Source of the DNA: Gekko japonicus
Lineage: Eukaryota
NCBI RefSeq assembly: GCF_001447785.1
Contig: NW_015165348.1
Coordinates: forward strand, 1 to 64,000
Length of the DNA stretch: 64,000 bases
Direction of reading: 5' to 3'
The notes under the pieces were generated by a model, which saw only the letters and a list, made by a program, of their open reading frames with translations, was not told the DNA's origin and searched no databases. The first letter of the stretch is position 1; every line of letters starts with the position of its first letter. This document shows, piece after piece, positions 7,669 through 36,860 of the stretch. Position numbers and translations under genes: made by a program.

Positions 7669-7679
7669 TGCTGAGTCAC
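7669..7679 (-). promoter_or_regulatory. Consensus antioxidant response element (NRF2/sMAF, AP-1) in PRDX6 intron 1
   Basis: + strand TGCTGAGTCAC = GTGACTCAGCA on -, an exact RTGACTCAGCA in non-repeat sequence. Confidence 0.5.
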
Positions 7680-10600
7680 TAGCAACCAAGCCGTTTACGG
7701 GGATTTTAAAAAGTCAATAATTTCTCAGCTTACGATAAGGAAACATGTGACAGTGGCTTTTGTAATGTCTTAAAGCTCCAGTTTCTCAGGAAGAAAACCA
7801 TTAAAACACAAACTTCTTGGACTGAGTACAAAGAACATAGCTGTTCGAAAAAGGGCAGCCCGCCTGAGAAGATGTGAAAGTATTTTATTTCCTGATTTTT
7901 TGTTCAGCCTTGTTTGTTCGTTTTGAATTGCAGTTACTAACTGGCTTACTAAATATTTGCTTTCTTTTATGGCCGAGGAGTGACTCCATAGGTTTGTAGT
8001 TAAGCATTAAAGCACATTTCCAAGGCAATCAACTGTTGCAAAGCCGTGACAGTCAAAGAGCAAAGGGCAGGGTTCTGTTGGCTGGCATACCTCCGAGGTG
8101 GGGCTCAAAGCATAATGGACTTCCTACAGGTGGCCACTTAGGTCAGGATTGCAGAAAGGTAAATGACAACACTTGGCAAGTATGTCTGTCACTCTGGTGT
8201 AGTGGTTGGAGTGTTGGTTTAGGATATGGGAGACCCAGGTTCAGGTGCCATGAAACTCACTGGCTGACCTCTTGGACCCTGCATTCTCAGCCCGACCCCT
8301 CTCAAAATGTCATGATGGGGTTACAATAGGACTGAACCAGGTATGCCTCCTCCGTGAGCTTCTTGGAGGAAGCATTTATAGATCCGCTGAGAAGAGCTCT
8401 AAATATGCAGTGTACTTTTTACTTTTTGATAGTATTTACTGGATTGCTCTATGGTAAGTCCGGAGCGGTTAGGGTATGCACTGCCCAGCAATTGTCATTT
8501 TAATGCCACTAATGGAATAACATCTGAGTTGGGGGAATTAATACTATATTTTTAAAAAAATTGCAAGCGACTTGGAGAACTTCATGGTGGAAAAGCGGGA
8601 TCCAAATTCCAGTAATGCAAGCACCTGCCAGGCCTGGAGCACAAAAACAGCCCTGCAGTGCTGTGAAATGCAACTTGAAGCCAAGGGCTGCAATCAGACA
8701 TCACGATCACCCACACCGTTTGTAAACCATAATTTGGATGAAGTTTGGTGTGCTGTGGCATCAGAATGCAGGCCACCCAACCAGCCACAGTTTGTTGATG
8801 GGAACTAAATCTAGATTCTAAACCATGGATTGTACCTGGCTTGTTAACAAGTTGAGTGCTGTGGTGATGTGTGATTAGAGAAATCCCGGTTTCTTCAGCG
8901 GCACTGCTCCTCCAAGCCTCCAAATAGGGTGTATTAAACAGTGAGGTTTTGCTAGCATCCTGGCAACTCAAGGGAGCTTAGGATAGCCCCTGGGGATTCT
9001 GCTTGGAGGAAAGGAGGCAAGCTGCAGACTAATTAGATTTACAAACATGATATGGCCATTTACATGTGTTTGGTGCGTTAATGAGGGTTTGTGCAATGAA
9101 CTTGGGGGCTCAAAGTAGCACTTTTTCCTATCTTCACCCTTTTTTATCGCTCCATCCTAGGCAATAAGCGGACGATGTTTTCTGGGTTCCAGTGTGGTGC
9201 TGAAACTCTTTGTGTTGACCCTCTTTTGCCTCGCTGCAGCATTGCAAAAACTGCAGAGAGCCCAGAAGATACAGCCTCTGTGACATTTCACAACTATGTG
9301 CAACTATGCAGACAACCCATGGATACACACTGCAGTTAGAGGGTAGCCATACATTAAGGGGAAAATATATTGCTTAGGATAGTAATGGTGGCATCATAGG
9401 GCAGCTGGTGCTCTTGGGCCCACAGTAAATAGTTATTTTAGGAGAGTGGACTTGTGGGAGGAGATTCTTCTTTAGTGTGGAGCTTTCGTACTGTTCTTGT
9501 GTAAGGGAGCAGGTATTCAAGATATTACCACCAAAATAGAAGATGTGTTGCAACTCCCAAGTGAGCAGAGTTGCTCTTCTCTGTTGCTGGCATCTATCTT
9601 CTGTGCTGTCTTTCCTGCACAGAGAGTGGAAACAACCTGAATATTGCTTATTTGCTGGTCATCGCATTTTGTGAACACAGCTGGCCTCCGAGTTACACTC
9701 ACCTATGCTAGGACTGACTTAAAAATCTTCTATGTGCATAAAATCCAATAGTGTTCGGTTTGGGGATTCTTTCAAAACATCTTGGGACTAGCATTTCTTT
9801 CCTAACTTGGGCTGTAAAGCCAGGACCCTGCAAAATACATCTGATGATGGGGGAGATCTCTGCCAGTGGATTAGATGTTTCTCTAACAACAATAGCCCAG
9901 AATGCCTGCTGAAATGCTGTCCCTGGGGAAACGGGATCCTCAGGGACAGCATTGCAGGGGGAGAATAGGTAGAAATCCCCCTCCCCTTTCCTACTGTGGA
10001 AACCAAACCAATTGCTGGTAAATATTTGTTAGAATTCACAGAACCATGTCTAAGAGGGCCATTCCTTGTGGGGGGAAATGACAATAGCAGGGTGTGCATT
10101 TGATGGTCCAAGTTTTCAGCCTTAAGCTTTTAAGATTAAGACAGGGAGTCTCCAAAGGTGCATAATATAATACTGATTTGATTACTTGCCTAAATATAGT
10201 AATCCAGTCTTCAGGGTGACAGAGGCTATTGAAGTTAACTGTACCGTAAAAGCTGGGATTAAGCATTGCTGGTTTGTGATGTGTCGGCAAACAGGAGCTG
10301 TCATTTTGCACAAAAGGCACTGGGAGGATCCATGCTATTGGGGAAAGTGGGTTTGAATGGTATGCGAGTGCCTCTGAAAGACAGAGAATGCAGAGAGACT
10401 AGTTTTGAAGGCTGGAGGCAATGCTGGCCAAAGGCCTTAATTTCATCTCTCTCGGCATGGTGTGATACAAGATCAGAAGGTTAATGTCCAGAGATTGAAC
10501 ACTAAAGTTAGTTTTTAGTTAACTCTATTCTGGCATCCACCCACCTGAAAATCTCTCCCTCTCATGTCAGAATAAAGTTAACTAAAAAGTACAGGAGGCA

Positions 10601-10860
10601 ATTTTCTAAATGTAAGGAGAAATTTAAACTGTTCAGTTGGATCAGCTTAGAGTGCCATGTTATCTTCCTTCGCATTTTGTCCTCAACTGCCCTGTGAAGT
10701 AGGTTCGACTGGCCTGTGACTTTCATGGCAGTGAGGATTTGAACCCATGTCCGTCCACTCCAATTCCACCACACCGGTTCTTCAGTTCTTTAATAAGATG
10801 ATTACAATAGACTGTGTTTCACTGCCATGACAATGTCATATTAGTTTGTTTTTCTTTTAG

Positions 10861-11017
10861 ATGGGGCATTCTCTTTTCTCATCCACGGGACTTCACTCCA
10901 GTCTGTACCACAGAGCTTGGCCGAGCAGCAAAGCTGGCACCGGAATTTGCCAAGCGTAACATTAAAATGATAGCCCTCTCCATAGATGACGTCAATGACC
11001 ATCTCTCCTGGTGCAAG
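10861..11017 (+). CDS. PRDX6: Peroxiredoxin-6 exon 2 (peroxidatic Cys, FTPVCTTE)
   Basis: ttttag| [52 protein letters not shown] |gtatta. 157 nt, frame-compatible with exon 1. Confidence 0.98.
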
Positions 11018-13734
11018 GTATTATGGGGCTGAAACGGTGGCACAGTGAACAAAAAGGGTGCCTGCCTGTTACCTGTTCTGACTGGATTCTGATCTTCTGA
11101 ATCGCCAACATAACTAAAACAACAGTTTAATGGCGAGCGTTCTTAGCCTGTGCAAGGTTCTTGGTTAGGGGTGTTGAAAGAACTGGATGTGCTTTAATGC
11201 TTACAGAATGTTGTCCCTGTATAAAATTTTAGTGGAACTACTGAGTGCAGTCTGCGGCTTCTGTGGTTTTCTCCTGCATTTTGAGGCAGAACAGTGCAGG
11301 ATACAATCCTTTAATGGGAGTGGCAAATGAACAACAGCACTGATTGGCTGGACTGTTCAATATCTGCCATCTTTTCTGTAGCTCCAGAAGAGAAGCTGTT
11401 CAGATCTTCTGGCAATAAAGTGATGACAGCAGCGGCTCCATTCGAACATCACACCAAACCCTGTTGGCTGCTAGCAGTAGGCTATTGAGGGCAGAGGAAT
11501 TAATGGCGAACATTTACTTTAGAGAACATCCCTGCTGTGCCGCAAAGGTGGAAAGCTTGTTTAGGTGTGCAAACCATATTTAAAGAGTTGCAAGGCGGCG
11601 TGAAATATTTATTAATAAAATTATTGCCTTCAAATAAAGTCCTTACCAGCTTTATAAGTTGGTTTTAAAGTGGAGTTGAAAACCAAATGATGACTCGTTA
11701 GCATCTTTTACTTGTCATTCTGTTGAGTGTGCCTCTACAATCAGGCTGACTAGAAATGTGATTTTTCCCCCCCCCCAGTGAGTAATTCAGCAAGAGGTCA
11801 CCTTGCTACAGAGCTGCATCTGCATTCCAAGCAGTATTCAATTGTCCACTATATGGAATCACACACCTTCAGAGTAATTTTCAAAACTGCATAGTCTTCA
11901 TTTATGACATTTTGCTCCCCCTTTATGCAATATACCTTGGCACAGTTAAGTTCAGTAGGTAGACAGACTCTGTCTGTGGTCCTGTTACGCATTGTGAACC
12001 CCTTCCTTCCCCCCAGCAGGCCATGCACATATCCTTTCATTAGCTGTAGTAAGAGGTTGGGGCACTGGAGAAGAGAATTGCAGCATTCCTATGCAATGTT
12101 ACAAGCAGTTAAAACAAAAAAAAGGTACTCGGTCATGGTAAAATATAACCGATGTCCTCGTAAATATTTGCCACATCCTGGTTTGTCCTTGGACACTCAG
12201 CCGCTGACTGCTTCAATTTTGCCGTTCTTGCTGAAGCAGATAATAAAGACTGGCATTCTGGAGCTTCACTTGTAGCCTTAAAGGTTCACTTACCTGGAAG
12301 ATTTCAAGCTTTTCTGCTGACAACGGAGTCTTGCACACCTGCATTAACCATGAAACATATTAGTCTTGAAATGTAACATGTGAAAGGGAGCATGTGCTAC
12401 TTTTTGAGTATACCTGGTTTGATAGAAGTATAATAAATATTCATATAATGCTTCTGATCAGCTTGCTTCATATTCATAGGCTTGGGTCCTGCTATCCAGC
12501 TCCACTCTCAACAGAGCTTTCCTATGGGAGAAGAATCCTCTTGCCGGTGGAAAGCTCTGTTATCAGTGGAAACTGAGCCATAAGGATCCAAAACATTACC
12601 TTTGTGCAATCCTAACAAGCCTGTAAATTAGACTGGTGATATCGTCATAGTGTGGCAGATTTTTTTGGGGGGGGGGAGAGAGCCAAACTATGCCTTCTTT
12701 TCGACAAAGGCAAAATCTGAACCGGGGCCTCCTGGATCACAGCTTCTTCTGTTAGCTTCTGTGGTGAATTATTGTAGTTTGGACACCACAGAGTTCAATG
12801 GGACTCACTCCCAAGTTCAGATCTAGTTCTCATTGAGATGGTAAACCTGTGTCTGGGCTGTAGATCATCAGGTGAGCCTCACACAACTGAATTGCTCTTT
12901 CTTTCCTTTAAAAAAGGAATACTGCTGACACCTGTATTCCTTTAGGCTCATTTCTTCAGGGAACATGTTTTCCTTGACTGTCAGGGAGCCCTTAACCATT
13001 GCAGAGGACTTCAGGGGTATCTGGAGACATGCACTTGACCCAGTCTAGGTATTAGTTAGGCCTGCTGAGCTTCACCATCATTCTGTGTGAACAGGAAAGA
13101 AAAGATGGGCTGTTACTCTATAGGCACTGAATCTAATGTGGAGAGTCAATATGAGCAGTAAAAGCAATTCTGTGTGCAAGAGAACTTTGTGGTCAGTGTG
13201 TTATCTTAATGAGTGAGGCAAGAGTTTTCTGGACCACTGAATATCTGTTGGCCAGCAGTATCAGTCTCTTCACCTCACAGTTCTTACCTGCCCATTACCC
13301 TTTTTTGTAAATTTTGGTTGCTGTCCACATTCTCTTGAGATCTATGGCCAACCTTTTATGCATATGCGATGTCTATATAGGGAACTGTTGCATGCCATTA
13401 CAGCCTTATGATGTGAAATGAGTACATGTAGGACTTTTCTGGGCTGATCTAGCTATTACTGGAACAAATGATACCCTGTTGGGTATAAGTGATGCATACT
13501 GGTCTGTTTTCTGAGGTTCTTCCTACTGGAGGAGAGTAGTTGGGAAAAACTATTTTGTAAAGGTACTCGTTCCTTTCAGACCGGATGGAGAAGGCAATAT
13601 TCCACAAAAGTCAAATCTTGCCCTATTCTTTTGCAACAATGGATACCACATTATCGAGATACTTAAGGTAAATAGTGTAACTTAGCATATTAGTAACAAA
13701 GACTTGATGATTTCTCCCCCTCCCCCATCTATAG

Positions 13735-13881
13735 GACATCAATGCCTACAATAAAGATCAGCCCACAGAGAAGCTCCCCTTTCCAATAATTGCAGACTCC
13801 AAGCGAGAGCTGGCGGTTCAGTTGGGGATGCTGGATCCAGATGAGAGAGACAAAGACGGCATGCCTCTGACTGCTCGTGTT
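13735..13881 (+). CDS. PRDX6: Peroxiredoxin-6 exon 3
   Basis: atag| DINAYNKDQPTEKLPFPIIADSKRELAVQLGMLDPDERDKDGMPLTARV |gtaagt. 147 nt. Confidence 0.98.
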
Positions 13882-15107
13882 GTAAGTATCGGTGCTTCTC
13901 AAGCATTGTATTTCTGCAGGTTGAAACCAAGGTTCTGTGTATTCATGGTTCTCCTTATATCTTTCCCATGGTCTATTGCCACTTAATCAGTGGCAGTTTA
14001 GCATTGCCTTAGTAGAGAGAGATGCCAGAGTGAAACAGTATTGATATCCCTATGAAGTAGAGTAAATGGCTACTCAGTCCGGTAGTGGACCAATCAGACT
14101 TGCTTGTAGACTGAGAGTAGTATCTCTCTCTCCTCCCTGGTTTTAGGTGACCAGCTTTTCAGATAACAGCTTAGTTGTGGCCTCCTGGAAAACAATTCAG
14201 CAATACACTGTCTGTTTCCTTGCTTGTAAAATGTAAATAAGTACTTTGATGGCTTGCAAGGATGAATAGGGGAATGTCATGGCATACCTATCACTTCTCA
14301 GGAATCAGGCAGGCTATAAATCTTTAAAAAACAAGAAAAGAAAAACCAGAGAAGAGTAACTCTGTCCAGCATCCAAAGCCTTACAAAGTAGATTATACTA
14401 GAAACTGGGAGAGAGAGAGACTGAGATTAATTCAAGCTGGTAGCGGATAAAAACTCCATTCTAGTGTAACAAGACTGACCAAATGAGTCAATGGACAGAT
14501 TGCAATGGAACTTTCCTGGTCACTTAGAGACAATGACTAGAAGGCTATTATAGTAAAACAAGATTTCTTTGTCTGTGACTTGCTAATCTGGTCCTCTGTG
14601 TTTTGTGGGTGCTCAAGACAAGAGATACAGTTTGCTAAGACATTTGCGCAAGCACCACTGAAATGAACAGAGGAGGTATTGCTAATGGATTTTCAGTTTT
14701 TATTGAAGTATCTTTTGCAGGGAACAACTGGTGCCTTTCAGGGATGGCTATAGTCCCTTTGAGATACTTTTCTGCTCCAGTTATCTTAAGATGTTTCTCT
14801 ACTCTGATGCTGAAGCTTATCAGTAAAAGAATCTTGTTGTCTTCTTGCCAAATTGGGACCACAAACACAGGGCAGAGAATTCCACAGGACTCTTAAGGTG
14901 GAAGCCTGAACAGCAGTTACTGTAGAGTACCTGCATTAGAAAAGAAAAACGGTGCCCAAAATGTGCTTGTTCTTTGACCTGGAAAAACAACTGTGCCAAA
15001 GAGACAGACTTAAAACTCTAAAGGAAGATTACTGGACAGGACTGATCATAAAAGGAGCCATTATGGCATGACATGCTGGGTTTTCATTGTGTGGCTTTGC
15101 TTTTTAG

Positions 15108-15254
15108 GTATTCGTATTTGGTCCAGACAAGAAACTCAAACTCTCTATCCTCTATCCAGCGACCACTGGAAGAAACTTTGATGAGATTCTAAGAGTCATT
15201 GATTCCCTGCAGCTAACAGCTGCTAAGAAAGTTGCCACCCCAGTTGACTGGAAG
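15108..15254 (+). CDS. PRDX6: Peroxiredoxin-6 exon 4
   Basis: tttag| [49 protein letters not shown] |gtagat. 147 nt. Confidence 0.98.
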
Positions 15255-16018
15255 GTAGATACTGTGGCTGATTCTGCATTGGCTTTTCCCTCTGTTGTTC
15301 TGTTCCACGTTGGAACAGAAATTCCCCTCTGCACTGCATGCTGCTTTCACTTCCGTTGATCATTGGATTTTATGGTAGCCTCCAGACTGCATGCCGCTTT
15401 GACTTTCTTTGATTATCGGATTTTATGGTACCTTCTGCATAGGTTTATGGCCATTTTATGGCCATTCAGGGGTGACTTTGCAGTCAGTACGGCATTGCCC
15501 AGTGTGGTTTTGAGCTGCACTCTCCCCCCCCCCCCCCACCCCACGCCGCGCAATGAACCGGTCCACTTCAGCCTCTTCTGCATCAGTGGTTGGGGCATAC
15601 ACTTGAATTACTGTGATGTTGAATGGTTTGCCTTGGGTTCTTTAAGGCTACTAACAGTGCAAGCCTAAACAGATTTAAACTCTTCTTAATCTGTAGGGTG
15701 TAACACTGTTTAGGATTTTACAGTTAATCTCTTTTTACAGTTAATTCTTCAGTTTGCTCAAATAAAATTCTTGTCAAAGAACAGCATGGTCCGAAATGTA
15801 TGCACTGTGGAAAGTGAGTACATTTTAGTTTCTGATTCTGAGACGTAGCCTCCAGGTCAGATAGAATAAACTACACCAAGTAAAGCAAGGAGGTTAGCTG
15901 TCAGTCTCATGACTGTTATGCAGTTACGTGGTGCAACTGCCCTGGGGGCTGACTCCATCACTGGTGTCAGTGAAGGACGGTTACTAGCCCTTGCATTGAG
16001 AAAATGAAGATTAAAATG

Positions 16019-16292
16019 AGAGCCAGTTTGGTGTAGTGGTTAGGAGCATGGTAGTCTGGGAGAACCGAGTTTGATTCCCCACTTCTCCGCATACAGCTGC
16101 TGGTGTGATCTTGGGTCAGTCATAAATTCAGAGCTGTTCTCTCAAGGGCAGTTCTCTCAGAGCTCTCTCAGCCCCACCTACCCCACAGGGTGCCTGTTGT
16201 GGGAAGGGAAAGGGATTGTAAGCCTCTCAGAGACTCCTTCAGGTAGTGAAGGGTGGGGTATAAATCCAATCTCTTCTATTCTTCTTCTCTTC
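16019..16292 (+). mobile_element. Squam3-type (MIR/Ther1-derived) tRNA SINE
   Basis: GAGCCAGTTTGGTGTAGTGGTTA head (A box), GTTTGATTCCCC B box, core, (CTT)n-like tail. Homologs at 18876, 38557 and 58946. Confidence 0.8.
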
Positions 16293-16533
16293 TAAAAACA
16301 TGACCATATGCAATTTGGAGGATTTTCAGCTGCAGAGGCTTCCATATGGGTATGCTGAAGCAATCAATGTGAAAACTTGTAGTTGGGAGGATGATGCTTT
16401 GCCTTTCAGAAAAAGTAACATCCATTCATGGACTAAAGGTTCTAGACTTTCACTGTAAAATATGGAATGGACTATTAAGTCTTGCTGCTTAGTAAAGTTT
16501 TTTTCCTCTCTTCCACCTTCTCTTCTTTTTTAG

Positions 16534-16665
16534 CCTGGGGATGAAGTCATGGTAATTCCAAGCCTGTCGGATGAAGAAGCCAAAAAGCTGTTTCCAGGTG
16601 GAATTTGCACTAAGGAACTCCCATCAGGCAAGAAATACCTTCGCTACACTGCTCATCCAAAATAA
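16534..16665 (+). CDS. PRDX6: Peroxiredoxin-6 exon 5 (to stop)
   Basis: tttag| PGDEVMVIPSLSDEEAKKLFPGGICTKELPSGKKYLRYTAHPK*. Spliced total 224 aa. Confidence 0.97.
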   Translation, partial: PGDEVMVIPSLSDEEAKKLFPGGICTKELPSGKKYLRYTAHPK

Positions 16666-17411
16666 AAAATAATAACTTTGAAGAAGGGTTGAACAGACCA
16701 GAAAGTTGGTCACTGGAGCTTTTTAGAACAAGTGATATAGCTGCCTTGTGTGAAGATGTGTTTGGAGAAATTGTTAAAGATGGAATAGTTGAAAGCATTT
16801 TGTTTAGCTTCTCCTTGGAATGTGATGCCTGAATGTCTTTGGCCTGGTGTAGTTTCAGCTACTTCTCAAGTCAAAGCTGCTTCTCTTCTTCTTTGTGATC
16901 AGACGTCTGGGTTTTGGTTGTGAGCAGAGTCTGCAATAATGTACTAATGGACAGTTAATTATTTACTTTTAACCCTTCAGTTTTCTGTTCTTTGGTCACA
17001 TAATCTCTTGTGTCCACGGTATTAAAAACTTGTGAATGGAAGCTAAATTCTCTTGCTGCCAAATGTTTCCTGGTTGAGCAGAGAAGAATCTCAATATTGT
17101 TCCAATATAGCCATGCACTTTATTTTCTTTTTTAAAAAAGAAGGATGTGAGGGTTCACCAGCGAAAAATTAAGCTGCATTTTTTTTCCACAGTGGGAAGT
17201 TTGTTCCATTAACCATGTGCCTTTATTGCAAAGAAATTAACCTTACTACAAAGAAGTGAACCGACTGTATTAGTTAAAATCTGTCATGGAAAGCTTGTGT
17301 TCGTTATACCAGTGTTGAATGAGAGATGTGAAGAAGATAAGCTTTACTGAACAAACATTTATCAACTGTTCCAGTATCTTTAACTTTTTGGTCATACTCC
17401 TTCAATCAGAA

Positions 17412-17417
17412 AATAAA
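17412..17417 (+). terminator. PRDX6: Candidate PRDX6 polyadenylation signal
   Basis: AATAAA ~750 nt after the stop, followed by a GT/T-rich tract at ~17438-17470. An ATTAAA also lies at 17021. Confidence 0.55.
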
Positions 17418-17608
17418 GTTAGCCTCTAACATGCCTGCTGTTCCTGTGTCTTCTGTTTGTTCATGTATATGAATGAGCCATTGTGCATCTTAAATTGCAT
17501 ATTTGTGTACAGTTGCTTAGGTTAAGGGGACAAAGTACAAGGTGGAAATCCTACAGGTCATCTAATTGAAAAAAGTGCCCTAGGAATTTGAAAAGCATCA
17601 GTATGAGT

Positions 17609-18020
17609 TGGGGTATGCAAAACCCCCCAACAACCATGGTATTTTTCAGGTTTGGGTATATTGAACCCCCAAAATATCAGTATTTCCTGATATCGCTGAA
17701 TCCCAATACCGGTATGGTATTTGGATTTGGGAAAACCTGAAAAAAAAATTTGGCTCTATTATACTCTATGGGGACCATTATGTATTTATTACTTCTTATT
17801 GTTTTTGCAACCAGAGTCATAAACAGCAAATGGGGACCATTATATTCAATGGTCTCCATAGGATATAACAGAGAATCTTGATCGGGAATATCTGGGGCTC
17901 TTGGGAGGGGCTGTTTTTTGAGAATTAGACATTATTTAAAAAAGATTGGACCAGGGGTCCAATTCTATGGGGCCCCATTCTTCATTGATTGTAATGGACA
18001 GGGAAAAGGCATTTAAAGGC
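17609..18020. mobile_element. Degraded hAT-like DNA transposon fragment
   Basis: (T)GGGGTATGCA start and TACCGGTATGGTATTTGGAT, shared with 34701-34830 (TAGGGGTGTGCA start). Confidence 0.45.
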
Positions 18021-18098
18021 AATGTGGCACCACCAGGACCCACTTTAACCATGTGTCCTGGTATGATACTGAACTGTTTGGGTGGGATGAGTGGAGAT

Positions 18099-18304
18099 CA
18101 GTGTTCCCTCTAAGCTGAGTTAGTGTGAGCTAGCTCACAGTTTTTTAGCCTCCAGCTCACAAATTTTTGTCGTAGCTCAGGAAGGATGGCTCCAGAGCAA
18201 ACTAATTTATGCAGTAGCCAAATCACTCACTCACAACTTTAATGCTGGTAGGTCACAACGTAGAATTTTTGCTCATTAGACTCCACAGCTTAGAGGGAAC
18301 ATTG
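18099..18304 (+). mobile_element. hAT MITE family A, copy 2
   Basis: CAGTGTTCCCTCTAAGCTG..CAGCTTAGAGGGAACATTG. Perfect TSD GTGGAGAT. Confidence 0.92.
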
Positions 18305-18359
18305 GTGGAGATAATGTCTAATTCTCATATTCAACACTGCCTGTGCTTTAAACCTTACC

Positions 18360-18598
18360 CATGAAGCTGCCTGCTACTGAATCAGACCCTTGGTCCATCA
18401 AAGTCAATGCTGTCTACTGCAACTTGCAGTGGTTCTCCAGGGTCTCAAGCAGAGGGCAACTTGCAGTGGCTCTCCAGGGTCTCAAGCAGAGGTCTGTCAC
18501 ATCACTCACTGCCTGATTCTTTCCACTCGAGGTGCTGGGGATTGAACCAGGGATCTTCTGCATGCAAAGCAGATGTTCTACCATTGAGCCTCACCCCC
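18360..18598 (-). mobile_element. tRNA-head SINE with CR1-like tail and an internal 37-bp tandem duplication
   Basis: - strand head GGCTCAATGGTAGAACATCTGCTTTGCATGCAGAAGATCCCTGGTTCAATCCCC. Duplication at 18419-18455 / 18456-18492. Relative at ~24820-25010. Confidence 0.7.
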
Positions 18599-18875
18599 TT
18601 CTCTTAAGCTGTATGCCAGTAGGTTAGATTTATCAAATACCATTTTGCTCATTTGCAGATAGTACTGGTAGCTGAGTACCAAAGGAGATCTGCGATGGTA
18701 TTTCTACTGCCACCATCCTTGGGGGGGGGGGTACTTCAGCCACACAGAGCCACGAAAGTGCTTGGGGTACTGAACCAGTCTTCCCCTTGGTGGGAAAGCA
18801 GCAATTTAGATCAGGGGAAATACCAAAGCACAGCTTCCTGATCAAATTAGCAACCTCATGCCTGGTCCACTGAAG

Positions 18876-19085
18876 AAGAGGTTTTTATACCCCACTTTTC
18901 TCTACCATAAGGAATCTACAAGTGGCTTACAATCGCCTTTCCCTCCCCACAACAAGCACCTTGTGAGGTAGGTGGGGCTGAGAGAGTTCTGACAGAGCTG
19001 TGACAGGCCTAAGGTCACCCAGCAGGCTTCAAATCCCGTTCTCCACATTAGAGTCCGCTGTCCTTAACCTGATACCATACTGGCT
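18876..19085 (-). mobile_element. Squam3-type SINE
   Basis: TTTATACCCCAC..GTGAGGTAGGTGGGGCTGAGAGAG..AAGGTCACCCAGC, the reverse complement of the 16019 family. Confidence 0.7.
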
Positions 19086-20133
19086 GAAGTGTGCGTGAAG
19101 GGGATGTAATCTATAGGTCTAACCATAGGTCTGCCACATGTTGCATCTAGGGAAGGAGTGGTTGAGGCAGGGAGCTAGTGTATTGGGAATGGGGGCAGGA
19201 AGGAGGAATGTTTTTAATTCTGCAAGCTGCTATGAAGACCCTGTGGTCAAAGTGACAGAGATCAAATAAAATAGCTAACCTCTAACTTTCTTTGCAAAAG
19301 CAGAAAGCATATTTCAGAATCAGCAATTACATGGGTAACTTGGGAAGCATGATATGAGCTGGGTATAGCAGTGTAAACTGGGTAAGAAATCCAGAGGGTT
19401 TGGTAATCTGTGCAATCTCAGTATACAACTACCTGCATTAATTCACAGGCATACATTAAGGTATAAACAGATACCTCTTTTTAGCATTTGTATGTTTTGC
19501 GAGCTGTTGGGGCAAAATGAAATTCCTAATTGCGAATTTGTTTTCTAGAGGGAGAAGTTGGGAAAGGTCAGTATCTCAGACTTCCAGATAACTGTGGGGT
19601 AACAGCTTCTTCAGAGAGTTGAAGAATACTTGATGGATCATGATTCTTATGTGATTTACATTGGCTTCTATACAGCAAGCGTTGGGTTTGTTTGTTGTTG
19701 TTGGGGTTTTGGTCCCTCATTCTCAAGAAGGAAAAATCACAAGGTCAGCCAATTGGAAAATGTGGAAGAACAAGACTTGCGTCCAATGGAACCTTACCAA
19801 CAAGACTTCCAGGGCATAAGCTTTCAAGAGTCAAAGCTCACATCTGGAAAGCTTGTTGGTCTTTCAGGCGCTACTAGACTCTATTATTGTACTGCAGACC
19901 AACATGGCTACCCACCATAAATTATTTTCATGGAGAATGTGGATAAAATGGATTAAGCCACATTTCCTGTATTTTTCTCTTTTATAAATCCTTTGCTTTG
20001 TTGGATCCTCTCCTTGGTTTTTATGTCGCCTGGGCCACAGCCAGCAAAGAGCACTTAACCATTCAAACCCCACTTAAATATTCCAGCATGCAATGGAGGG
20101 GTTTGGGGATTAGCGCAAAGGTATGCACATAAC

Positions 20134-20484
20134 GCTGCGGTGGCTCAAGTGGTTAAGACGCTGAACTGCAGGCTGTGGAAGGTCAGTAGTTCAGCAGTTC
20201 GAGATCCGGGTGCCGCATGACGGAGTGAGCTCCCGTCTCTAGTTCCAGCTCCTGCCAACCTAGCAGTTCGAAAGCAAGAAATTGCAAGTAGATAAATAGG
20301 TACCACTTCGGTGGGAAGGTAACAGCATTCCATGCGCCTTGGTGTTTAGTCATGCTGGCCACATGACCACGGAAACATCTTCGGACAGCGCTGGCTCTTC
20401 GGCTTTGAAACGGAGATGAGCACCGCAACCCTAGAGTCGGATTCGACTGGCTTTCGAGCAACGGAACCTTTACCTTTTACCTAG
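20134..20484 (+). mobile_element. Sauria SINE, near full length
   Basis: tRNA-like head GCTGCGGTGGCTCAAGTGGTTAAG, core CCTGCCAACCTAGCAGTTCGAAAGCA, (ACCTTT)n tail. 9-bp TSD GCACATAAC. Confidence 0.92.
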
Positions 20485-20527
20485 GCACATAACAGATAAG
20501 CTGGTTTGTTTTTCTGTAACATCTCAC

Positions 20528-20735
20528 ACATAAGAACATAAGAGATGCCAATGTTGGATCAGGCCAAAGGCCCATCCAGTCCAACACTCTGTATCACAGA
20601 GTGGCCAGAAATACCAGTGCCATCAGGATGTCCACCAGTGGGGCCAGGACATTAGAAGCCATCCCACTGTTGACCCCCCAAAGCACCAAGATGACAGAGC
20701 ATCACTTGCCCCAGAGTCCCTATCTATACCTTGTG
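20528..20735 (-). mobile_element. CR1-type 3' end
   Basis: CATAAGAACATAAGA tail on +. Reverse complement of 5305-5517. Confidence 0.75.
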
Positions 20736-22650
20736 GCAACATTTTAATGATTTGTTTACATTGGCAGCAATTCCTTGCTCACATTAAACAATTCAGACAC
20801 CGTGTTCTTTTTACCTTTTTACATTGCATGACAAACATTTCAACTATGGGAATGTCAAATGCACGTCTATAATGGAAAGAGATGGCACCTGTGATGTAAT
20901 GCCCCTTTAACGGGAGCAGTCTCCCAGCACAGGTGTAAGCTGTAATGCCTAAAGTACTTATTATCCTGGATTTGGTGGGAGCCAGCATGTTGCTGATATC
21001 TGGCTCTGGTTCTGAGTTTAGCCCCTCTAGCAGGGGCTCATTCGAGATGTTAATACACTAAGTTGCTTGTTCCTTTTGACGCCTGACTATTATTTGGGTA
21101 CTATCTACGGTTAATACTGAATGTTACAGTAACTGTGCAGGACATTCAAATCAGTCCAGTGCCAGCGTTGAGGTGTAGTTCTGTGATCCCTTTTAGGACA
21201 GTTTACAGAGTGTGGCTTTTGAGCCTGCGATTTAAGGGGAGGATCAGCACAGGCAGACTAGGTATTTTAACTCTTTCCCCTGCTAAAAATAGTTCCCTTC
21301 GAGTTGTTTTTGATCCCTACTGGAGAAAGCTTAAGTGTAAGAGTTCCCTGTTGGGTTAAATGTTCCCACTCACTGTACCAGCCTGTCCTTGTAAACTGCA
21401 ACCCTGGTAGCTTCATATTATAAAATAAAATGGGTTGGATCCTATGGAGTGCCAGTTGTTGATTCTAGATTCAGGTGGGTAGCTGTGTTGGGCTGAAGCA
21501 ATAGAACAAAGTTTGAGTCCAGTGGCACCTGTAAGACCAACAAAGTTTGTTCGGTTGTTGATTCTGGCAGAGTTGGAGCTCTCCTGTCTACTTTCCTCTA
21601 GCAGCTGCCTATGTGTTAAAAAGGCCATGGCAGGGACTGGTGGACCTGCAGGGAATGAAAGCCATGCAGAACTGGCTACTTCAGTAAAGAGAAAGTGGTC
21701 AAAACCACTACTAACCAGCGGATCATCTTCTACTAACAGAATGCCCTTTTGCCATTGGAAAGGAGGCATAGGATCCAACGCAGTGTCAGCAAAAAGGACT
21801 GGAAGCTACACTTCGGACCCAATCTGCTATGAATTTTTAAGTTAGTCTCTAGTGCTTTTCTAGCTGGGAGACTATTAATTTCCATAGAGACTTTCAGAAT
21901 CAATAGAACATGGAAAAGGAGAGATGATCCAATACAGTGGTACAGTCTTACACTGTTCCTATTGCATTGTTAAATTTTGTAATCCACCTTGTATCTCAGT
22001 GGGAAAGGTGGACTATAAGTAAATTAAATTAATTAATGAACTGTAATACATGGCCCATGTTTACACTGCTCTGCCAAAGAAGAAAACTGCAGGCAAATGG
22101 GCTCTGAAAGGCAAGGCTTATTTGCTGCTTCAGCTCCTTATTTTCTTTCATCCATGGAACTCAAGGCAGAGCACATAGACCCTACAAAGCAGGGCAGAAT
22201 GCGTTTTTGTGGGGTTTTTTGTCAAATTGTGTGGTACTTACAGGACTGTAAGATTATGATACCTTTCAGTGAAGTTTACAGAATGTATTTCCCAAAGTAT
22301 GGGGAAATGTGAACTTCCCCCCCAAAAAAATTAGTTTAGAAGTTTAAAGGGGCATATGTGGCATTATAGACTGCTTCCAAAATCTTGGTTTATTTAGGAT
22401 TTGGATTCAAGGGAGACATCATGACAACTGATGACCACAAGCTCTTTACTGCGTAAAACAATTTAATTCTGATAGGATAGAGAAGTTCTTCACTTAAGTG
22501 GAAGTCCCGTGGATATGATACTGTCGCCTGCTGTAGGTGAAAAAGATTGGTTTTTTCTAGGAAAATCCCCTCCCTGCAAATTAGCTGGATAATTTCCAGA
22601 AGGTTGCCTTCTACGGCCATAATGAAAAAGGGACCCATGACACCTTAAAA

Positions 22651-26649: not shown

Positions 26650-27759
26650 GTGAGTAGGTTCAATGGCCAAGTAGAAGGGTAAGGGGACTGGGGGGAAAAA
26701 CAGAAAATAAATTGGGAGGGAGGTGTGTGATGTCCAAGTGCTTTCTCAGCTCCCACCCACCCAGTTACACCTTCCAGCAGCAAAGTTGATTCTCGTTACA
26801 GCTTGGGTTACAAGTAGCCAGTAAGGTACTGCTAACAAATAACTGTGCAGGATTACGTGCTGCTTATATAATGGAAGCCTGGGGAGGTAGAATAGGAATA
26901 TGAGGTAATTTCTACTCCTCCCCCCCCTTCTTCTTCAGTGATTCACACTAACACCTTCCTTTCACAACACACAAAATAAGGTTATTGTCTTTTCTTTAGA
27001 AGGGCTCAGTGCTTGGTGGTTTGGTGAATAAGATAAGGAATGTAAAAAGTTATTGGTCATTCCAGCAGGGGGAAGCAGAACTCTGCTTTAAAATAGTTAT
27101 AGATACCAATAGAATACATATCTGAGTTCTTTTCCTTCACTAGGCAAAGCCTAACTACTTGACTATTCTCCTGGTAGTTTCCCCGTGTTTCTCTGTTGCT
27201 TCCCCAAGCCCTATCTAATGAGGGTTTTCCCACACATCTTATTTTTGTTGTTTGTGTGCCCATACTGCATCAGGGTTTTTTACACCGCTAGTGCTTGTGA
27301 ATAAACTGGCGACACTATAATGAAATATCAAAGCAACCACTAGAGGGAGCAAAACACATGCAGAAAAGGCAGGGAAATGACGCAATGCAGGCATACATGC
27401 AAGGAAATAACAGGAGAGGAAAAGCCCTGAGATGATAGGATTTTCCTCCACTTGACTCCCCCCCCCCCCGCGGTTTCCATAGCTTCTCATTGGCTGATGC
27501 TGCTTAGCATCTGCCTTCTCCCCCTCTAGGCAGGGATTTGCTGGGGGAAGAGCATAGGGGAAGCAAAAGGAAGCAGAGGAAGAGAATGAATGAACTTCTG
27601 GATAGTTTAAATGGGCAGAGCAGAGCAGATATAGAATTTACAAACAATTTTACTGAATATTCATTTCTGCAGTAAATCAACCAGGATCAGGAAGAATAAA
27701 ACAAAGTGAGTTCAATTATAAGGAATTTTAAAAAGGCCTCTGCTTCTGATCCTGTTGTA

Positions 27760-28570
27760 GTATCTTACACAGAGTACTACTGAATATTTCATAAAGGCTT
27801 CAATAGCTTTTTTCCTGGACACAGCTCTCACACATATAAATCCTTCATGAAGGCTGACAATTTCTTTGGCGAAATTACTGAAGAGGGAAATCTTAATTAT
27901 GGCCTTTGGATGGGTTGTTGTATCCCAGATCTGACCCAAGGACCTGTGAGCCCTCTCTAGAATAAGATCATAATCTTCTGGCAGGGACAGGCTGTCTCTT
28001 AAAATACACTGAACAAAGGCCACCATGTCTGTCCCTTCTAGGCATTCTCTGACCTCCATGAAGCGAATATTATTACAGCGGTTTCTGCTTTCTAGGTTTA
28101 AGAGTTTGCATTTTAAAGCTGTTACTTTAGACTGATGTTGTTAGATGGAAGCAGACGTAGAAACAGAAGAGTCTTCTAGGTCCGAGATCCTGCTATGGGC
28201 ATTTGTTAGCTGTTCAGCTGCCTGCTTCTCAGACAGCAGTCTCTCCTGCTGTCTCTCCTGCCTTTGGTGTCCTCGAGGTTTCCTCTTAAGAGGGCCGCAA
28301 TCAGTGGACCATCTGTGGCCACAGTAGGGAGCGCAACCTCATTGTTATGTTCAGCTGCAGCGGCCGTTTTGGATTTCGCCTGCGCAGCCGTCTTGCTGTG
28401 ACTTCTTGGACTGTTCAAGGACTGTCGCCTAATCTGCCCAAGAGCAAAATATACTCAATGGTGCTGTGTTGAATCCAGTAGAGATGAGGGCCAGATGTCA
28501 GTGGATTGGACCCGTACAGGCCTGGAGCTCACTCAGGTGTGCTGTGTACAGCTTGAAGGCTCCGCCCCAC
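27760..28570 (-). mobile_element. L1-clade LINE 5' fragment (5'UTR plus degraded ORF1)
   Basis: - strand LLNLESRNRCNNIRFMEVRECLEGTDMVAFVQ..LILERAHRSL matches the ORF1p motifs LENRSRRNNIR..ERAHR. Confidence 0.85.
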
Positions 28571-29136: not shown

Positions 29137-29231
29137 CTTGTCTTCTTTATTAAGTCTTCCCTGAACCTTCTCAGGATCTGTAATTGTTGCCTGGATTTGG
29201 ACGATAAGCAGCCTTAAGTTTTGTTTGGCTT
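29137..29231 (-). CDS. ANKRD45: ANKRD45 coding exon 3
   Basis: tttcag| (E)AKQNLRLLIVQIQATITDPEKVQGRLNKEDK |gtatag. 95 nt, phase 1 to 0. Confidence 0.93.
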
Positions 29232-30027
29232 CTGAAAATAAAAGAGAGACAGAAAATAGCTGAAATATTTAGAAAAGTGACTGCGATAGCAATCCTAAAC
29301 AGGTCTAAACAGAAGTAAACCTAGTTTTATTCAATGGGGCTTATTCCTAGGACAGGGCTCTTAGGAGTGGACCATAAACAAACTCTATAGCAGAAAGCTA
29401 CAATAACGTACATCAGAGGTGGATTAAATTACCAGTTGGCTTTTGCCCATATGCACACATTTTTATAGAATAGTTGCTGCAGAGCAAGGTGAGTAAATAA
29501 TGATGTTGGGAACTGGTTGTGTGTAGCACTAAAATTTAGCATAAGCAACCTGGGAGAAAGGAAAAACTACCACAACCCCAGGAAAACCACAACAAAGAAA
29601 TCTAAGAACACAGGCTCTGGAGCAGAGGAAAGTTAAAGGACAAAAACAAGGTATAATCTTTCTGTCTAAGATTTAATATGTGCCATACATCTATTAAACT
29701 AATTGTTCAGTATATTTGGATACCTTTTATTTTTAAAATATTAGAGCTGTCCATCCTATTGTTCACTACCAAGTTAAAATCTCCACCCAGAATTACAGCA
29801 CCATCTACAAAGAGCTAAAGCATCCAACACTTTATAGAACACACTGTTTATTTTTGGAGTATATATATTAACTAATGTCATTCTCCGGTGTCCCAAAGTC
29901 CTTTTAATGCCTAAAATGCTCTGTATTTTTTTCCTGCCTTCTACATTACACTTTGCTTCTTGAGAAATGTCTTGCAGGCCTTAACGACATCACAGAAGAT
30001 TTCTTACGATGATCTGGAGCTTCTTTA

Positions 30028-30035
30028 TGACGTCA
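30028..30035. promoter_or_regulatory. Full CRE palindrome upstream of the TEX50-like gene
   Basis: TGACGTCA ends 214 nt upstream of ATG 30249. The CpG is retained in a CpG-poor intron. Confidence 0.55.
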
Positions 30036-30248
30036 CACAATCCTCCTTCAGTCAGTGGGCTCATGGCATTGCCTGCATTCAGGCCTCACCAGCGCTCAAG
30101 CTGGGAGCTTGTTCATAATGGAAGGATTTATTTGACTAGGATACCTTCAAGATAATCAGAATAGATTTCAAAAGGCCACTTGCAGCCGTACCTACCCAAG
30201 GACAACCAATGAACGGGAGATATTTCTTGCCGAAAAGTCATCGAAGCC

Positions 30249-30569
30249 ATGTTTCTGCGAAGCCCTTTGCAGGTTTTTCTCTTGTGGACTGCCCTCTTGT
30301 TCCAAGATGTTGTTGATGCCTGTGAACGGCCAGCTTGGACAAGAGTTGGTTGGGATATGACTCTGCAGGATCTGATGCAAATGTCTGAAGAACAATCCAA
30401 TGGCATACACAGCTCGGTGTGTCAGATCTGCCGCAAGTTTACCGGCATAGGGCTATCCAAAGAGTGCCTACAGGTTTTAAATGCAAGCTGTAAGATGGCA
30501 CTCTTTATAGCTGTGGTTTTATCTTTATTCTATCTTTTACCCAAACTGAAAATAGCAACAAGGAGAAAG
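30249..30569 (+). CDS. TEX50: TEX50-like exon 1 (signal peptide, Cys ectodomain, TM helix)
   Basis: gccATG. MFLRSPLQVFLLWTALLFQDVVDACERPAWTRVGWD.. resembles human CDGTVWTKVGWE as recalled. TM ALFIAVVLSLFYLL then KLKIATRRK. Donor AAG|gtaaga. Syntenic position inside ANKRD45. Confidence 0.85.
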
Positions 30570-31254
30570 GTAAGATGTATAGCGGTTGTGTAGTGAAGAA
30601 AACAGTCCACTCTCAGCTGGTCCATTTCACGGCACCTAACTTTCACTGGAGAGAAAACAATGTATGTGTTTTTTAAACTCTTCTGGTGCCTCATAGGATG
30701 GACCCTGCTGGGGTGGGGGTGGGGGTGGGGAGGAAACACTCTCAAAATAGGAATATGAATTTGAGACAGAGGCTAGAGCTGTTCTACCATGAGAATAAGC
30801 CCTGAGTAACATATATCTAGGACAGTGTGGGCATATCTACACTACAAATGTAGGTGGTTGTTATTCCTCCCAACCCCAAAGTATTCTGGTAATCATAGTT
30901 TTCCTGCACTTCTGAAAATTCTGTTAATCCTTTGCCAGGTCTTTTCATTTCCCTTAAAGAATTATGGGAATTATACTTTGATATTGAGAACTCTATTGGA
31001 ACTCTTGTTCTATCAGCAGAGCTCTATTGACAGTACTTTGGATCCAATCCAAAGAATAAAACAGTGAAAGCCCCTTCCTTCTTATCTGTGTGCCAGAAAA
31101 AAGCTTTGCTGACTTAATTACCACCGATCAAGCAACTGTTAAAAAAAACTAGTATAAAAAGGAACTCTGCTTAATCTCTCTGTTGAGTGTCCTTATTCTT
31201 GGGGGTGGTGGTGGAAGAGTTAACTCATTTTGCCTTTTTTTCTCTCCTGGTCAG

Positions 31255-31524
31255 GAAATGATCCAATCACCGGTACTTTCAGCCACTTTCAAAATGAGTC
31301 CTGAACACACCCACAACACAGAAAAGATGCTCTTCAGATTGGTGGCTAACACCTCCAAAATGATGAAGTACATGAAACACGTCGCCCATCATTACAGGAA
31401 AGAAATTAGACATCATAGACTGAGCAAAAAGAAAAAAGCCGAGGACATGGACGATGAACAGCTCTTCTCTGTTTGTTCCCACCATCACAGCTCCAGTGGG
31501 GACAGTGCCATGCATGGATTCTAA
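31255..31524 (+). CDS. TEX50: TEX50-like exon 2 (cytoplasmic tail)
   Basis: Polypyrimidine tract + tcag| EMIQSP..HNTEKMLFRLVANTSKMMKYMKHVAHHYRKEIRHHRLSKKKK..*. Resembles human [38 protein letters not shown]. Spliced 196 aa. ATTAAA at 31667 and 31719. Confidence 0.82.
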   Translation, partial: EMIQSPVLSATFKMSPEHTHNTEKMLFRLVANTSKMMKYMKHVAHHYRKEIRHHRLSKKKKAEDMDDEQLFSVCSHHHSSSGDSAMHGF

Positions 31525-31767
31525 ACAATAACGAATGAAAGGACTCTTGCTTCTTTGCATACAATCCTTGCAATGCTGCCCTTAAGCCAACCAACAGGAA
31601 GGTAGATGACAAAAGCCAGGAGGTGCTCAGCATGGTCCAAAATGGAAGGGGCATGAAAGAAGGGCAATTAAATTTTTTTAAAGTCAAGCCAAAGCAATTT
31701 GCATTTAAAATATCAATAATTAAAAGACTATATTTGGTGGACCCACCAGTAAAATGTGGCATGGCCT

Positions 31768-34380
31768 ATGTGTGTGTTAACTGCCGTCAAGTCGCTTCTG
31801 ACCTGTGGTGAACCTATGAATGAATGACCTCCAAAATGTCCTATCGTTAACAGCCTTGCTCAGGTCTTGCAGACTGAGGCCCCTGGGGCTTCCTTGACTG
31901 AATCGATCTATCTCATGTTGGGGCTTCCCTTTTTCATGCTGCCTTCAACTTTTCTTAGCATTATTGTCTTTTCCAGTGACTCTTGTCGTCTCATAATGTG
32001 ACCAAACTATAATAATGTGACCAAATATTTGTGTTGTTAGCAGCCCACAGTATCTGTAAAACTCTCCTCCAACACCACATTTCAAATTAATCAACATTCT
32101 TCTTGTCACCTTTCTTCAATGTTCAACTTTCATACCGATACATAGTAAAGGGGAATACTATGGCATGAATTATCTTAATCTTGGTCACCAGCAACACATC
32201 CTTATCCTTAAGAATCTTTTCTGGCTCCTTCATGGCTACCCTTTACAGTCTCAGTCTCCTTCTGGTTTCTTGGTTTCAGTCTCCCTTTTGGAAGATGATA
32301 GAGCCAAGAATATCTCAAATTGGTAATGTTCCTTCCCCCAATTTTCACTCCACCCTCATCTAAATCTAATCCAGCCTTCCTTACTGATAAAATTCATCCT
32401 TGTCTGACACTGTAGCACCTTTGACTTTGGAGGATTTAGAGATGAAGATCTCACTTTCCTCTACTTTTCTTATAACTGGGTTTCCGCTGGCACCAGAGGC
32501 CTCACCAACTCTGACTCTATCCCTCTTAATAAATCAACAGAGTGTTTATCTACTTCTGTTCTGGCAGTGGAGTGACAGACCGGGCAGCATGTAAGTAAGG
32601 TTAGAGGAATGATGCTAAAGATGCGTTTCTAAAATAGAGATACATTTTTAAACTAAATAAACAAGTGCTTTTTTTCTTCTTTTTCCCCTTGTACTGTATG
32701 GTGGATTTTTTTTATAGACAGATACTGTTCTAAAGTTTTGGTTAATGTTTTGCCAACTATTTCAGCTATGAAATACCTAGGGTAGTAGGTGAGCTGTAAG
32801 TTAGTCAATCCACTCAGAATTCTACTTCTCACTCACACACACACACCACAATTCACACAGCCTACTAGGATTTTGTTTTTGTGCACTTGGATGAGTTGCA
32901 TACTCAGGGACTCCGCTATATTCCACACAGGAACATATATTTTTCTACCAAACCAACAACTTCCTCAGACTTTTTCTCAAAACCTTTCTCTCACCCCACC
33001 TTTCCAAGAAACTCTTTTTTTCATCCTATCAGCAGTCTCTCTCTCCACAACCAATCAGCATGCACAATGCCAGCCCCTACCTCTTTCTTTTTTCTTTCCT
33101 CTAGGACTACAACTTTAGTAATATAACCACTGTACACGTAATTTACGAAAACATTGAATTATGAACTCATAAACACTCCAGAAGTCAATAATCACGATAG
33201 ACACCTTCGCCAATTGGAAACCATTCTGTTTCTCCATATTCTGTCCTAACAGTAGCCTCTTGTCCAGAGTGCAGGTTGTGCATCAAAACAATCAGATGTT
33301 GTGTCATACCCATTTCTTTTGAAAGCAGCTATAACTTTTCATGATCCACACAGTCAAAGGTTTTGCTGTAATCTATGAATCACAAGCTAATTTTCTTCTC
33401 AAATTCTCTTGTATGCTCCAGCAACTAACATAAAATTGCAATATGATCTCCAGTGCCTCTTCCATTTCTGAAACCAGCTTAACATCTGGAATTTCTCATT
33501 CCATATATGGTAAGAGTCTTTGTTGTAAGATGCAAGCATCACTTTACTCATGTGAGAAGTTAATGTGATGGTCTAATAGTTGCTGCAGTCTTTGACATCT
33601 TTTTTTGGAATTTGAATATAAATTGACTGTTCCCAGTATGTGGGCCATTGTTTTGTTTTCCATATTTATTGGCATATTCTTGTTAAGATCTTGATGGACC
33701 CTGTTTCTGTGGCTTAAAATAGTGCTACTGATATCCCATCTGTCTCTGGTGATTTGTTTCTCCCAAAAGCTCTCAATGCAGCTTTCACTTCACTTTCTAA
33801 AACTGTAGGTTCTTCAAAAATTTATTCTTGGGAGAAATCCTTTCATCTCTTCTGTATAGTTCTTCAGTGTATTGTTCCCATCTTTTCTTTATTTTGTCCT
33901 GTTCAGCTAATGTATTTCTATGTTGATCTTTCAGCATGCCTAACCAGGCTTTAAAGTTCACTTTGATTTCTTGGATTGCGTGGAACAGATCTTCCTTTTC
34001 CTGTTCTTCTCTTCTATTTCTTTACATTCATCATTGTAATAGTTCTCTTTGTAAGTGCAAGTCACTGGAATGCTGCATTTAGACTTCTGATTCCATTTCT
34101 GTCACCTTTTACTTTTGATTCTTATGAATCTTTAGCGATTTTAAGAGTTTCATCAGTCATCCATCAAGGCTTTTAATTTCATTTTGTTATAAGAATTGTG
34201 CATTCTTCCCTGATGATATCTTTGGTTTCAACCCATAGTTCTTCTGGATCACATTTATTTTAAATTAGTAACGCAAATCTGTTCTTCACATAGTCTTTAA
34301 ACTCTTCAAGAATGTTGTTTAGAATATATTTTAGCACTATGAATGTTTTGGTGTTTTTCTTCAGTGTTATTCTATTTTTC
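31768..34380 (-). mobile_element. Degraded RTE-clade LINE, interrupted at ~32330-33190
   Basis: - strand RT motif FIDYSKTFDCVDHEKL at ~33330-33380. RTE-type 3' end at 31768-32320. Many stops. Confidence 0.8.
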
Positions 34381-35359
34381 AACAGTAACCTTTCCTTTGT
34401 CCAATAAAAGCTCTATAACTTAATGCCTTGAGCAGTATAACAATCTGAAATTTCATGTATAATCTCTGTTTATTTCCCAAAAGATAAAAGGAATAACAAA
34501 ATTGCAACATCCAAGGTTACATTAGAATTTTGATCTGAGAGTAGAGAGTGATCTGCTTGAATTAAAATCATTGAAATTCACCAGCCTCAGAAGGATAAAA
34601 TGGCATCTTGGATTAGAATATAGAGGGCATTCCAATAAAATATGAGAGTATGTCAGAGCAGGGAAGATGCAAAAAGCAGCCTCTCGTAACCACTGTTGAA
34701 TAGGGGTGTGCAATGTTTTTTACCAGTATTTTTTGGTTCAGGTCTACCGGTATGGTATTTGGATCCAGGATTTTTTTGGAAATCCCCAAAATTTTCAGGT
34801 CCAATAGACCAGAACCAAAAAAATGCAGGTAGAAAAATACCAGCCTGATCCTGGTGCTGGCTTGGCTTCTCCTGATCCTCAGGCTGACTTCTGCAGTCCC
34901 TTTATAGTTTAAAAGGACTCCATAAGCCCACCTGACAAACAGCTGAGAGGTGGGAGCAATCTGTAAGGATCTCTGTAAACCAATAAGAGTGCGGGATAAC
35001 AAGACTGCATTGTCTGCATACAGCAGAATAGGAATGTTATGATGTGCTAGACAAGGAGGATGACAGGATTGATCAAAATGGCTTGACAGATCCTTTAAAT
35101 ATAAATGAAACAGATATGGAGCCAGTAGACAACCTTGTCTGACACCACACTTTATTTATTTATTTAAATTTGTATCCCGCCCTCCCCGCCAAGGCAGGCT
35201 CAGGATGGCTTCCATTAAAAGTTAAAATACATTAAAAACAAATTCATTAAACACAATACACATCATAAAAACTCATAACATACAAATAACTAGTAACAGT
35301 GAGTTCAGTTAAAGTGCTAGTGGCGGTATAGCATGATTTCAGTAGGCCATGGTGTAGCC

Positions 35360-36564: not shown

Positions 36565-36860
36565 GTAAAAGGTAAAGGTTTCCTTGCTCGAAAGCCAGTC
36601 GAGTCCGACTCTAGGATTGCAGTGCTCATCTCCGTTTCAAAGCCGAAGAGCCAGCGCTGTCCGAAGACGTTTCCGTGGTCATGTGGCCGGCATGACTAAA
36701 CACCAAGGCGCACGGAATGCTGTTACCTTCTCACCAAAGTGGTACCTATTTATCTACTTGCAATTTCTTGCTTTCTAACTGCTAGGTTGGCAGGAGCTGG
36801 GGCCAGAGACGGGAGCTCACTCCGTCTCGAACAGGTGAACTACCGACCTTCCACAGCCAG
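36565..36860 (-). mobile_element. Sauria SINE, head partly deleted
   Basis: (AAAGGT)n on +. Highly similar to the 20134 and 42888 copies. Confidence 0.88.

Follow-up and report, generated by a model that had tools for sequence, protein, structure and literature searches.

Mammalian TEX50 is a testis-specific protein of 177 amino acids in human and 189 in mouse, with a signal peptide 23 residues long and, in the mouse protein, a membrane helix at residues 78-100; the mouse gene has two exons (PMC12435281). In mouse, the protein is reported to appear in haploid spermatids, where it rings the margin of the acroplaxome and then moves to the posterior ring, and it co-precipitates with SPEM3, which is described as conserved among mammals only (PMC13711846). 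Loss of TEX50 leaves male mice infertile, with bent or rounded heads, and the two mouse papers disagree on where the defect begins, the testis or the epididymis (PMC13711846; PMC12435281). The mouse protein has been proposed as a contraceptive target (PMC12435281), and conservation of TEX50 from reptiles to mammals is already in print (PMC12435281; PMC13711846).

The genomic setting of the gene is also described. Mouse Tex50 (chr1:161,156,843-161,159,314) lies inside Ankrd45 (161,142,447-161,170,510), between Klhl20 and Prdx6 (PMC13264541), and ANKRD45 and TEX50 have been named as overlapping (PMC10877842). Among the human pairs in Table S1 of a study of nested genes in mammals is one with simple nesting, an outer gene on the minus strand and an inner gene on the plus strand, both expressed most highly in testis. 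According to the same study, simple nested pairs lie on opposite strands in 74% of cases in human (296 pairs) and 78% in mouse (248 pairs), with an over-representation of testis-specific inner genes in mouse; no squamate genome stands in its list of species (PMC8467205). Our literature search, which covered 25 of 64 ANKRD45 entries, found no statement on the nesting of TEX50 in ANKRD45 outside mammals. We take the Ensembl identifiers of the Table S1 pair to be those of ANKRD45 and TEX50.

The nesting bears on how the mouse phenotype is read. The knockout deletes 2,315 bases, all of them within the Ankrd45 span (PMC12435281; PMC13264541), and the human host gene is itself testis-specific (tau 0.98; PMC8467205). 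Ankrd45 is mentioned nowhere in the main text of either mouse paper (PMC12435281; PMC13711846), and we regard an effect through the host gene as an unstated, probably minor, confound of the Tex50 knockout.

The window analysed here is a stretch of 64,000 nucleotides of the gecko Gekko japonicus (contig NW_015165348.1, forward strand). It carries two coding exons on the plus strand, at 30249-30569 (amino acids 1-107, comprising the signal peptide, a small outer domain and the membrane helix) and at 31255-31524 (amino acids 108-196 and the stop, a tail predicted to be cytoplasmic). Between them lies a predicted 685-base GT-AG intron in phase 0 (30570-31254). Translation would start at the ATG at 30249 and end with a TAA whose last base is 31524; the joined exons make 591 bases and encode 196 amino acids without an internal stop. 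The donor reads AAG/GTAAGA after 30569 and the acceptor CAG/G before 31255, with pyrimidines at 17 of 20 positions. We scored the 64 open in-frame donor/acceptor pairs against a TEX50 profile made from 12 named reptile proteins, with the window sequence left out, and the 30569/31255 pair came out best, at 252.5 bits vs 248.8 for the next, a small margin of 3.7 bits; the four nearest rivals share its acceptor and have poor donor sites. A candidate polyadenylation signal, ATTAAA, follows on the plus strand at 31667-31672, with a second copy at 31719. A preliminary description of this DNA had joined two plus-strand open reading frames at these splice sites, in phase 0, into a protein of 196 amino acids, and the GT-AG signals, the open frame and the best-scoring pair bear it out. 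The observation of an intact two-exon gene is confirmed.

The protein aligns with positions 1-197 of the 199 in the TEX50 profile, and the best of 1000 shuffled sequences reached 9.9 bits. Scored separately, exon 1 (profile positions 1-110) gave an E value of 5e-37 and exon 2 one of 6e-36. The exon 1 score is partly circular, because exon 1 seeded the homologue searches; exon 2 was never a query in them, and it is 53% identical to Varanus TEX50 and 42% to Alligator TEX50. When the window was translated in six frames (2201 segments), no window segment other than the two exons stood among the top profile matches, and next in rank were shuffled sequences of at most 9.9 bits. We ran phmmer with exon 1 against 1.84 billion representatives and obtained ten matches, of which nine are real; the tenth, a 603-amino-acid repeat protein (P0010) with 20 matched residues, was rejected as chance. 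Four of the nine (Varanus, Pelusios, Gopherus and Alligator) are named testis-expressed protein 50, the other five being unnamed or uncharacterised. The profile search gave 18 matches, all from reptiles, and at least one source names 13 of them TEX50 or TEX50-like; such names are present in Varanus, Liasis, Podarcis lilfordi, turtles and alligators. The earlier remark that a gene of this kind is easily missed in annotation holds in part, five of the 18 matches having no TEX50 name; squamate TEX50 is already in RefSeq and UniRef.

General searches added little. Pfam returned no family for exon 1, and its SidC_C match to exon 2 (16.3, below the cut-off of 27) was taken as chance. A homologue search among longer proteins yielded none from 45 candidates, and in an Atlas search all scores were below 0.9, the best (0.81, SMIM9) being a lead only. 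No mammal, bird or amphibian TEX50 was among the search matches, which is not evidence of absence, as the searches may not serve such sequences. Crocodilians and turtles are present among the matches and birds are not, which could mean that birds have lost the gene or that the search was limited. The link between reptile and mammalian TEX50 is supported by database names, synteny and the published papers, and we consider orthology to TEX50 to be nearly certain.

A search in the reverse direction agrees with this identity. When TEX50 of the turtle Lepidochelys was run against the whole assembly, three of 13 scored candidates were matches, and all were either the TEX50 exons of the window or a short contig of 945 bases (G000:C63829:1-945). 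That contig is 98.8% identical to window positions 29791-30734. It differs at one of 321 coding bases of exon 1, with nine substitutions and one gap in some 460 upstream bases. Because the identity extends through intron and upstream DNA, the contig is likely to be a second allele and not a duplicate. Other contigs hold two weak matches to exon 1 that contain stops, with E values of 0.02 and 0.09; the turtle protein found neither of them, and we set them aside as noise. With the named reptile proteins, the profile score and this reciprocal search, the TEX50-like identity first proposed from the letters is upheld.

Conservation was measured on 19 relatives drawn from 25 proteins. Left out were P0001 and P0002, which carry exon 1 but end differently, P0006 and P0025, which match over roughly the first half only, a second Crocodylus model (P0024) and the chance repeat protein. 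Six squamate proteins are 47-57% identical to the gecko protein, the two from Anolis 31-33%, and the 11 from turtles and crocodilians 35-44%. A tree of 20 rows places the gecko protein with the eight squamate rows and apart from the 11 turtle and crocodilian rows with support of 100/100, in agreement with the earlier assignment of the DNA to a squamate; the end branch of the gecko protein (0.41) compares with 0.37 for Varanus and 0.40 for Hemicordylus. The two Anolis carolinensis proteins, LOC134295872 and LOC107982358, are unnamed, divergent and TEX50-like. They form a sister pair (100/100) whose branch is long (0.81), and their contigs are equal in length; a duplication within anoles followed by fast change is likely.

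The nearest described proteins, squamate TEX50s from Varanus komodoensis (XP_044295120.1), Liasis olivaceus and Podarcis lilfordi, are 53-57% identical to the gecko protein over about its whole length and share the same order of parts: signal peptide, C-x-x-P-x-W, membrane helix, LVANTS helix, a basic run and an acidic, cysteine-containing tail. At position 78 the gecko protein has Asn in place of their Tyr, and this gives it a sequon of its own; the remaining divergence is ordinary. Turtle and crocodilian TEX50s, such as those of Alligator sinensis (XP_025052536.1) and Lepidochelys kempii, are mostly about 198 amino acids long with the same tail, but lack both cysteines of the CxxC and differ in a segment of the outer domain. 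Mouse and human TEX50 share with the gecko gene the two exons, the signal peptide, the single helix at about 78-100 and the nesting on the strand opposite ANKRD45; they differ in length (189 and 177 amino acids vs 196) and in a partner, SPEM3, that is reported from mammals only (PMC12435281; PMC13711846).

Hydropathy peaks at residues 7-25 (1.46) and 79-97 (2.13). The first corresponds to a signal peptide (amino acids 1-24, 30249-30320, plus strand) predicted by hydropathy and homology. The second corresponds to a transmembrane helix at about amino acids 80-99 (30486-30545, plus strand), a confident helix in the AlphaFold model of the Varanus protein that we used as a stand-in. The predicted signal peptide and single predicted membrane helix near 78-100 are those expected of TEX50. 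Basic residues follow directly after the helix, with a net charge of +3 in amino acids 100-108, and the tail then turns acidic. In the Varanus model (pTM 0.24), the only confident helices are the membrane segment and residues of about 131-160, and the end is disordered. The best-conserved segment is the LVANTS helix, amino acids 130-150 (31321-31383, plus strand), with a mean identity of 0.69 over the 19 relatives and a pLDDT of 85-89 in the Varanus model. Amino acids 25-45 come second at 0.57, and the acidic end has 0.34.

Cysteines stand at positions 25, 58, 61, 73, 81 and 181, and sequons at N78 (N-A-S) and N139 (N-T-S). P28, W30 and N139 are kept in all 19 relatives, C25 and C181 in 17 and C81 in 16; the full N139-T-S occurs in 16, and both Anolis proteins keep the Asn without the sequon. 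All of the motifs listed in the preliminary description (signal peptide, cysteines, N-A-S, helix, basic tail and acidic C-terminus) are present in the gecko protein. As shared features, however, the CxxC and the N-A-S fail: N78 is found in none of the 19 relatives, most of which have Tyr there, while C58 and C61 occur in six each and together in four, all squamates. With the two cysteines together in just four of 19, there is therefore no conserved redox motif. The N78 sequon abuts the membrane helix, a position that makes its use for N-glycosylation unlikely. The C-terminal tail of acidic, Cys, His and Ser residues (31444-31521, plus strand), predicted to be disordered, had been singled out as an extension; it is indeed present, but nearly all reptile TEX50s have it, so it does not set this genome apart. 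Its supposed absence from the human protein would fit the shorter lengths of human and mouse TEX50 (177 and 189 amino acids; PMC12435281).

The gene lies antisense within a 6.9-kb intron of its host, between the second and third host exons seen. Four minus-strand exons of the host have compatible phases: 39979-39634, the first coding exon seen, with an ankyrin repeat (Ank_2 E 0.0016, short of the curated threshold); 36287-36120 (168 bases), which keeps phase 1; 29231-29137 (95 bases), with a few RNA reads; and 24657-24519 (139 bases). A candidate last coding exon is at 21413-21645, also on the minus strand. The exon ends at 36120 and 29231 that had been given as the borders of the intron are as described. 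On one side of the host is PRDX6 (390-16665, plus strand; E 2e-18 to peroxiredoxin-6, its span taken from motif positions), and on the other a BTB-BACK coding stretch that belongs to a kelch-like gene, probably KLHL20 (57370-57921, plus strand). An exon scanner that missed known exons was used just as a lead to PRDX6 and to the end of the kelch-like exon. The ANKRD45 and KLHL20 names are our assumption from Pfam domains and gene order. With these names, the nested antisense arrangement reported for human and mouse is reproduced here, and the flanking genes are those of mouse. The simplest account of the nesting, we suggest, is a single ancient insertion that has been retained since the time of the amniote ancestor.

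Several other observations were made along the locus. The distance from the PRDX6 stop to the likely last host exon (16665-21413) is about 4.7 kb and leaves no room for SLC9C2, a large gene for a sperm Na+/H+ exchanger that we take to lie between PRDX6 and ANKRD45 in human. SLC9C2 was lost here, moved, or inserted later in mammals; in mouse, Slc9c2 has been reported to be a pseudogene, and our search of the literature on SLC9C2 in reptiles and on posterior rings in lizards found nothing usable. A short repeat in two copies of opposite orientation (36570-36850 and 20150-20480) resembles the Sauria SINE known from lepidosaurs. Open stretches on the minus strand inside host introns (27712-28140 and 34613-35155) look to us like decayed fragments of LINE ORF1 and reverse transcriptase.

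Transcript data came from four of the 14 sequencing runs listed: three raw runs with the same species label, of which about 3%, 12% and 12% were sampled, and one contig set, the tissue being unknown. In these partial runs and the contig set, no read fell on the TEX50 exons or their junction, and the runs gave no depth over 30252-31703 and no intron joint. About one read pair just upstream of the ATG in one run is too little to use. Depth on the host exon at 29137-29231 was near 1, and a repeat beyond 31700 accounted for most mapped reads; this dispersed repeat, at 31780-32400 just downstream of TEX50, attracts nearly all of the mapped RNA reads at 90-95% identity and looks like a Bov-B/RTE LINE fragment. 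For a testis-specific gene, the missing reads neither confirm nor refute.

By analogy with mouse, we consider it very likely that the gecko gene is a TEX50 orthologue with an anchoring role, its conserved helix being the likely docking site. The signal peptide would be cleaved, leaving about 55 residues outside without a compact fold, and the one membrane helix with an inward-facing tail would make a type I membrane protein. Within the tail, the helix at amino acids 130-150 together with the basic run that follows would be the likeliest site for docking partners in the ring or perinuclear theca. If the mouse protein is a guide, expression would fall in haploid spermatids, and the protein would pass from the acroplaxome's marginal ring to the posterior ring, bind SPEM3 and be required for head-tail coupling and fertility.

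The main open rival to this anchoring role keeps the gene and changes its job or partner: reptile TEX50 might work without SPEM3, or at another site in sperm, served by its tail. The description of SPEM3 as conserved among mammals (PMC13711846) speaks for it, as do the disagreement of the two mouse papers over timing and the retention of the tail with Cys181 in 17 of the 19 reptile proteins, most of which exceed human TEX50 in length. We nevertheless think it somewhat unlikely, since the signal peptide, the position of the helix, the two exons and the locus are the same as in mouse and the tail is poorly conserved (0.34) and predicted to be disordered. A profile of the Spem1 family (PF15670) found no match in this genome, and its controls were also blank. 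The orientation of the protein can also be turned around, with the C-terminal half lumenal and N139-T-S a used glycosylation site, as the retention of N139 in all relatives and of the full sequon in 16 of 19 might suggest; the net +3 just after the helix, which by the positive-inside rule places the tail in the cytoplasm, the loss of the sequon in both Anolis proteins and the annotation of the mammalian protein with a signal peptide (PMC12435281) make this very unlikely.

Two further readings question whether there is a working TEX50 here at all. A recently silenced, untranscribed copy with its frame still open would fit the lack of exon reads in the partial RNA runs and the loss of the Tyr that most relatives keep at position 78. 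It is highly improbable given that the frame is open in both exons and the splice sites are strong, that the end branch is like those of Varanus and Hemicordylus, and that the likely second allele has a single change in coding sequence vs nine and a gap upstream; moreover, mammalian TEX50 is testis-specific, and the tissue from which the runs derive is unknown. That the locus is a TEX50-like paralogue, or two chance antisense frames in an intron, could draw on the lack of a Pfam family for exon 1, the sub-threshold result for exon 2, the Atlas scores below 0.9 and the Anolis pair, which indicates that duplication occurs. The single locus in the genome and its syntenic position leave this with a very small probability, and chance frames are rejected outright by 252.5 bits vs 9.9 for the best shuffle.

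We therefore return to the orthologue with an anchoring role, and to what it adds. The inference that the gene and its nesting predate the mammal-reptile split is supported by named reptile TEX50 proteins and a matching locus; for the gene it is not new, since its conservation is in print. The gene and its age are already known; the locus is real, correctly identified and ordinary. The gecko nesting is a small addition that can be read from annotated genomes: a squamate shares the opposite-strand nesting of human, which places the arrangement in the amniote ancestor provided that it had a single origin. For studies of partner binding by mouse TEX50, the reptile alignment also points to the helix at amino acids 130-150 as the region to mutate. 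We offer, as a speculation that we ourselves think quite unlikely, that TEX50 could be an older core of the posterior ring, nested before the split, and that reptiles may use it without SPEM3, their Cys-bearing tail standing in for this later, mammalian partner. If that were true, reptile sperm would have an undescribed ring marked by TEX50.
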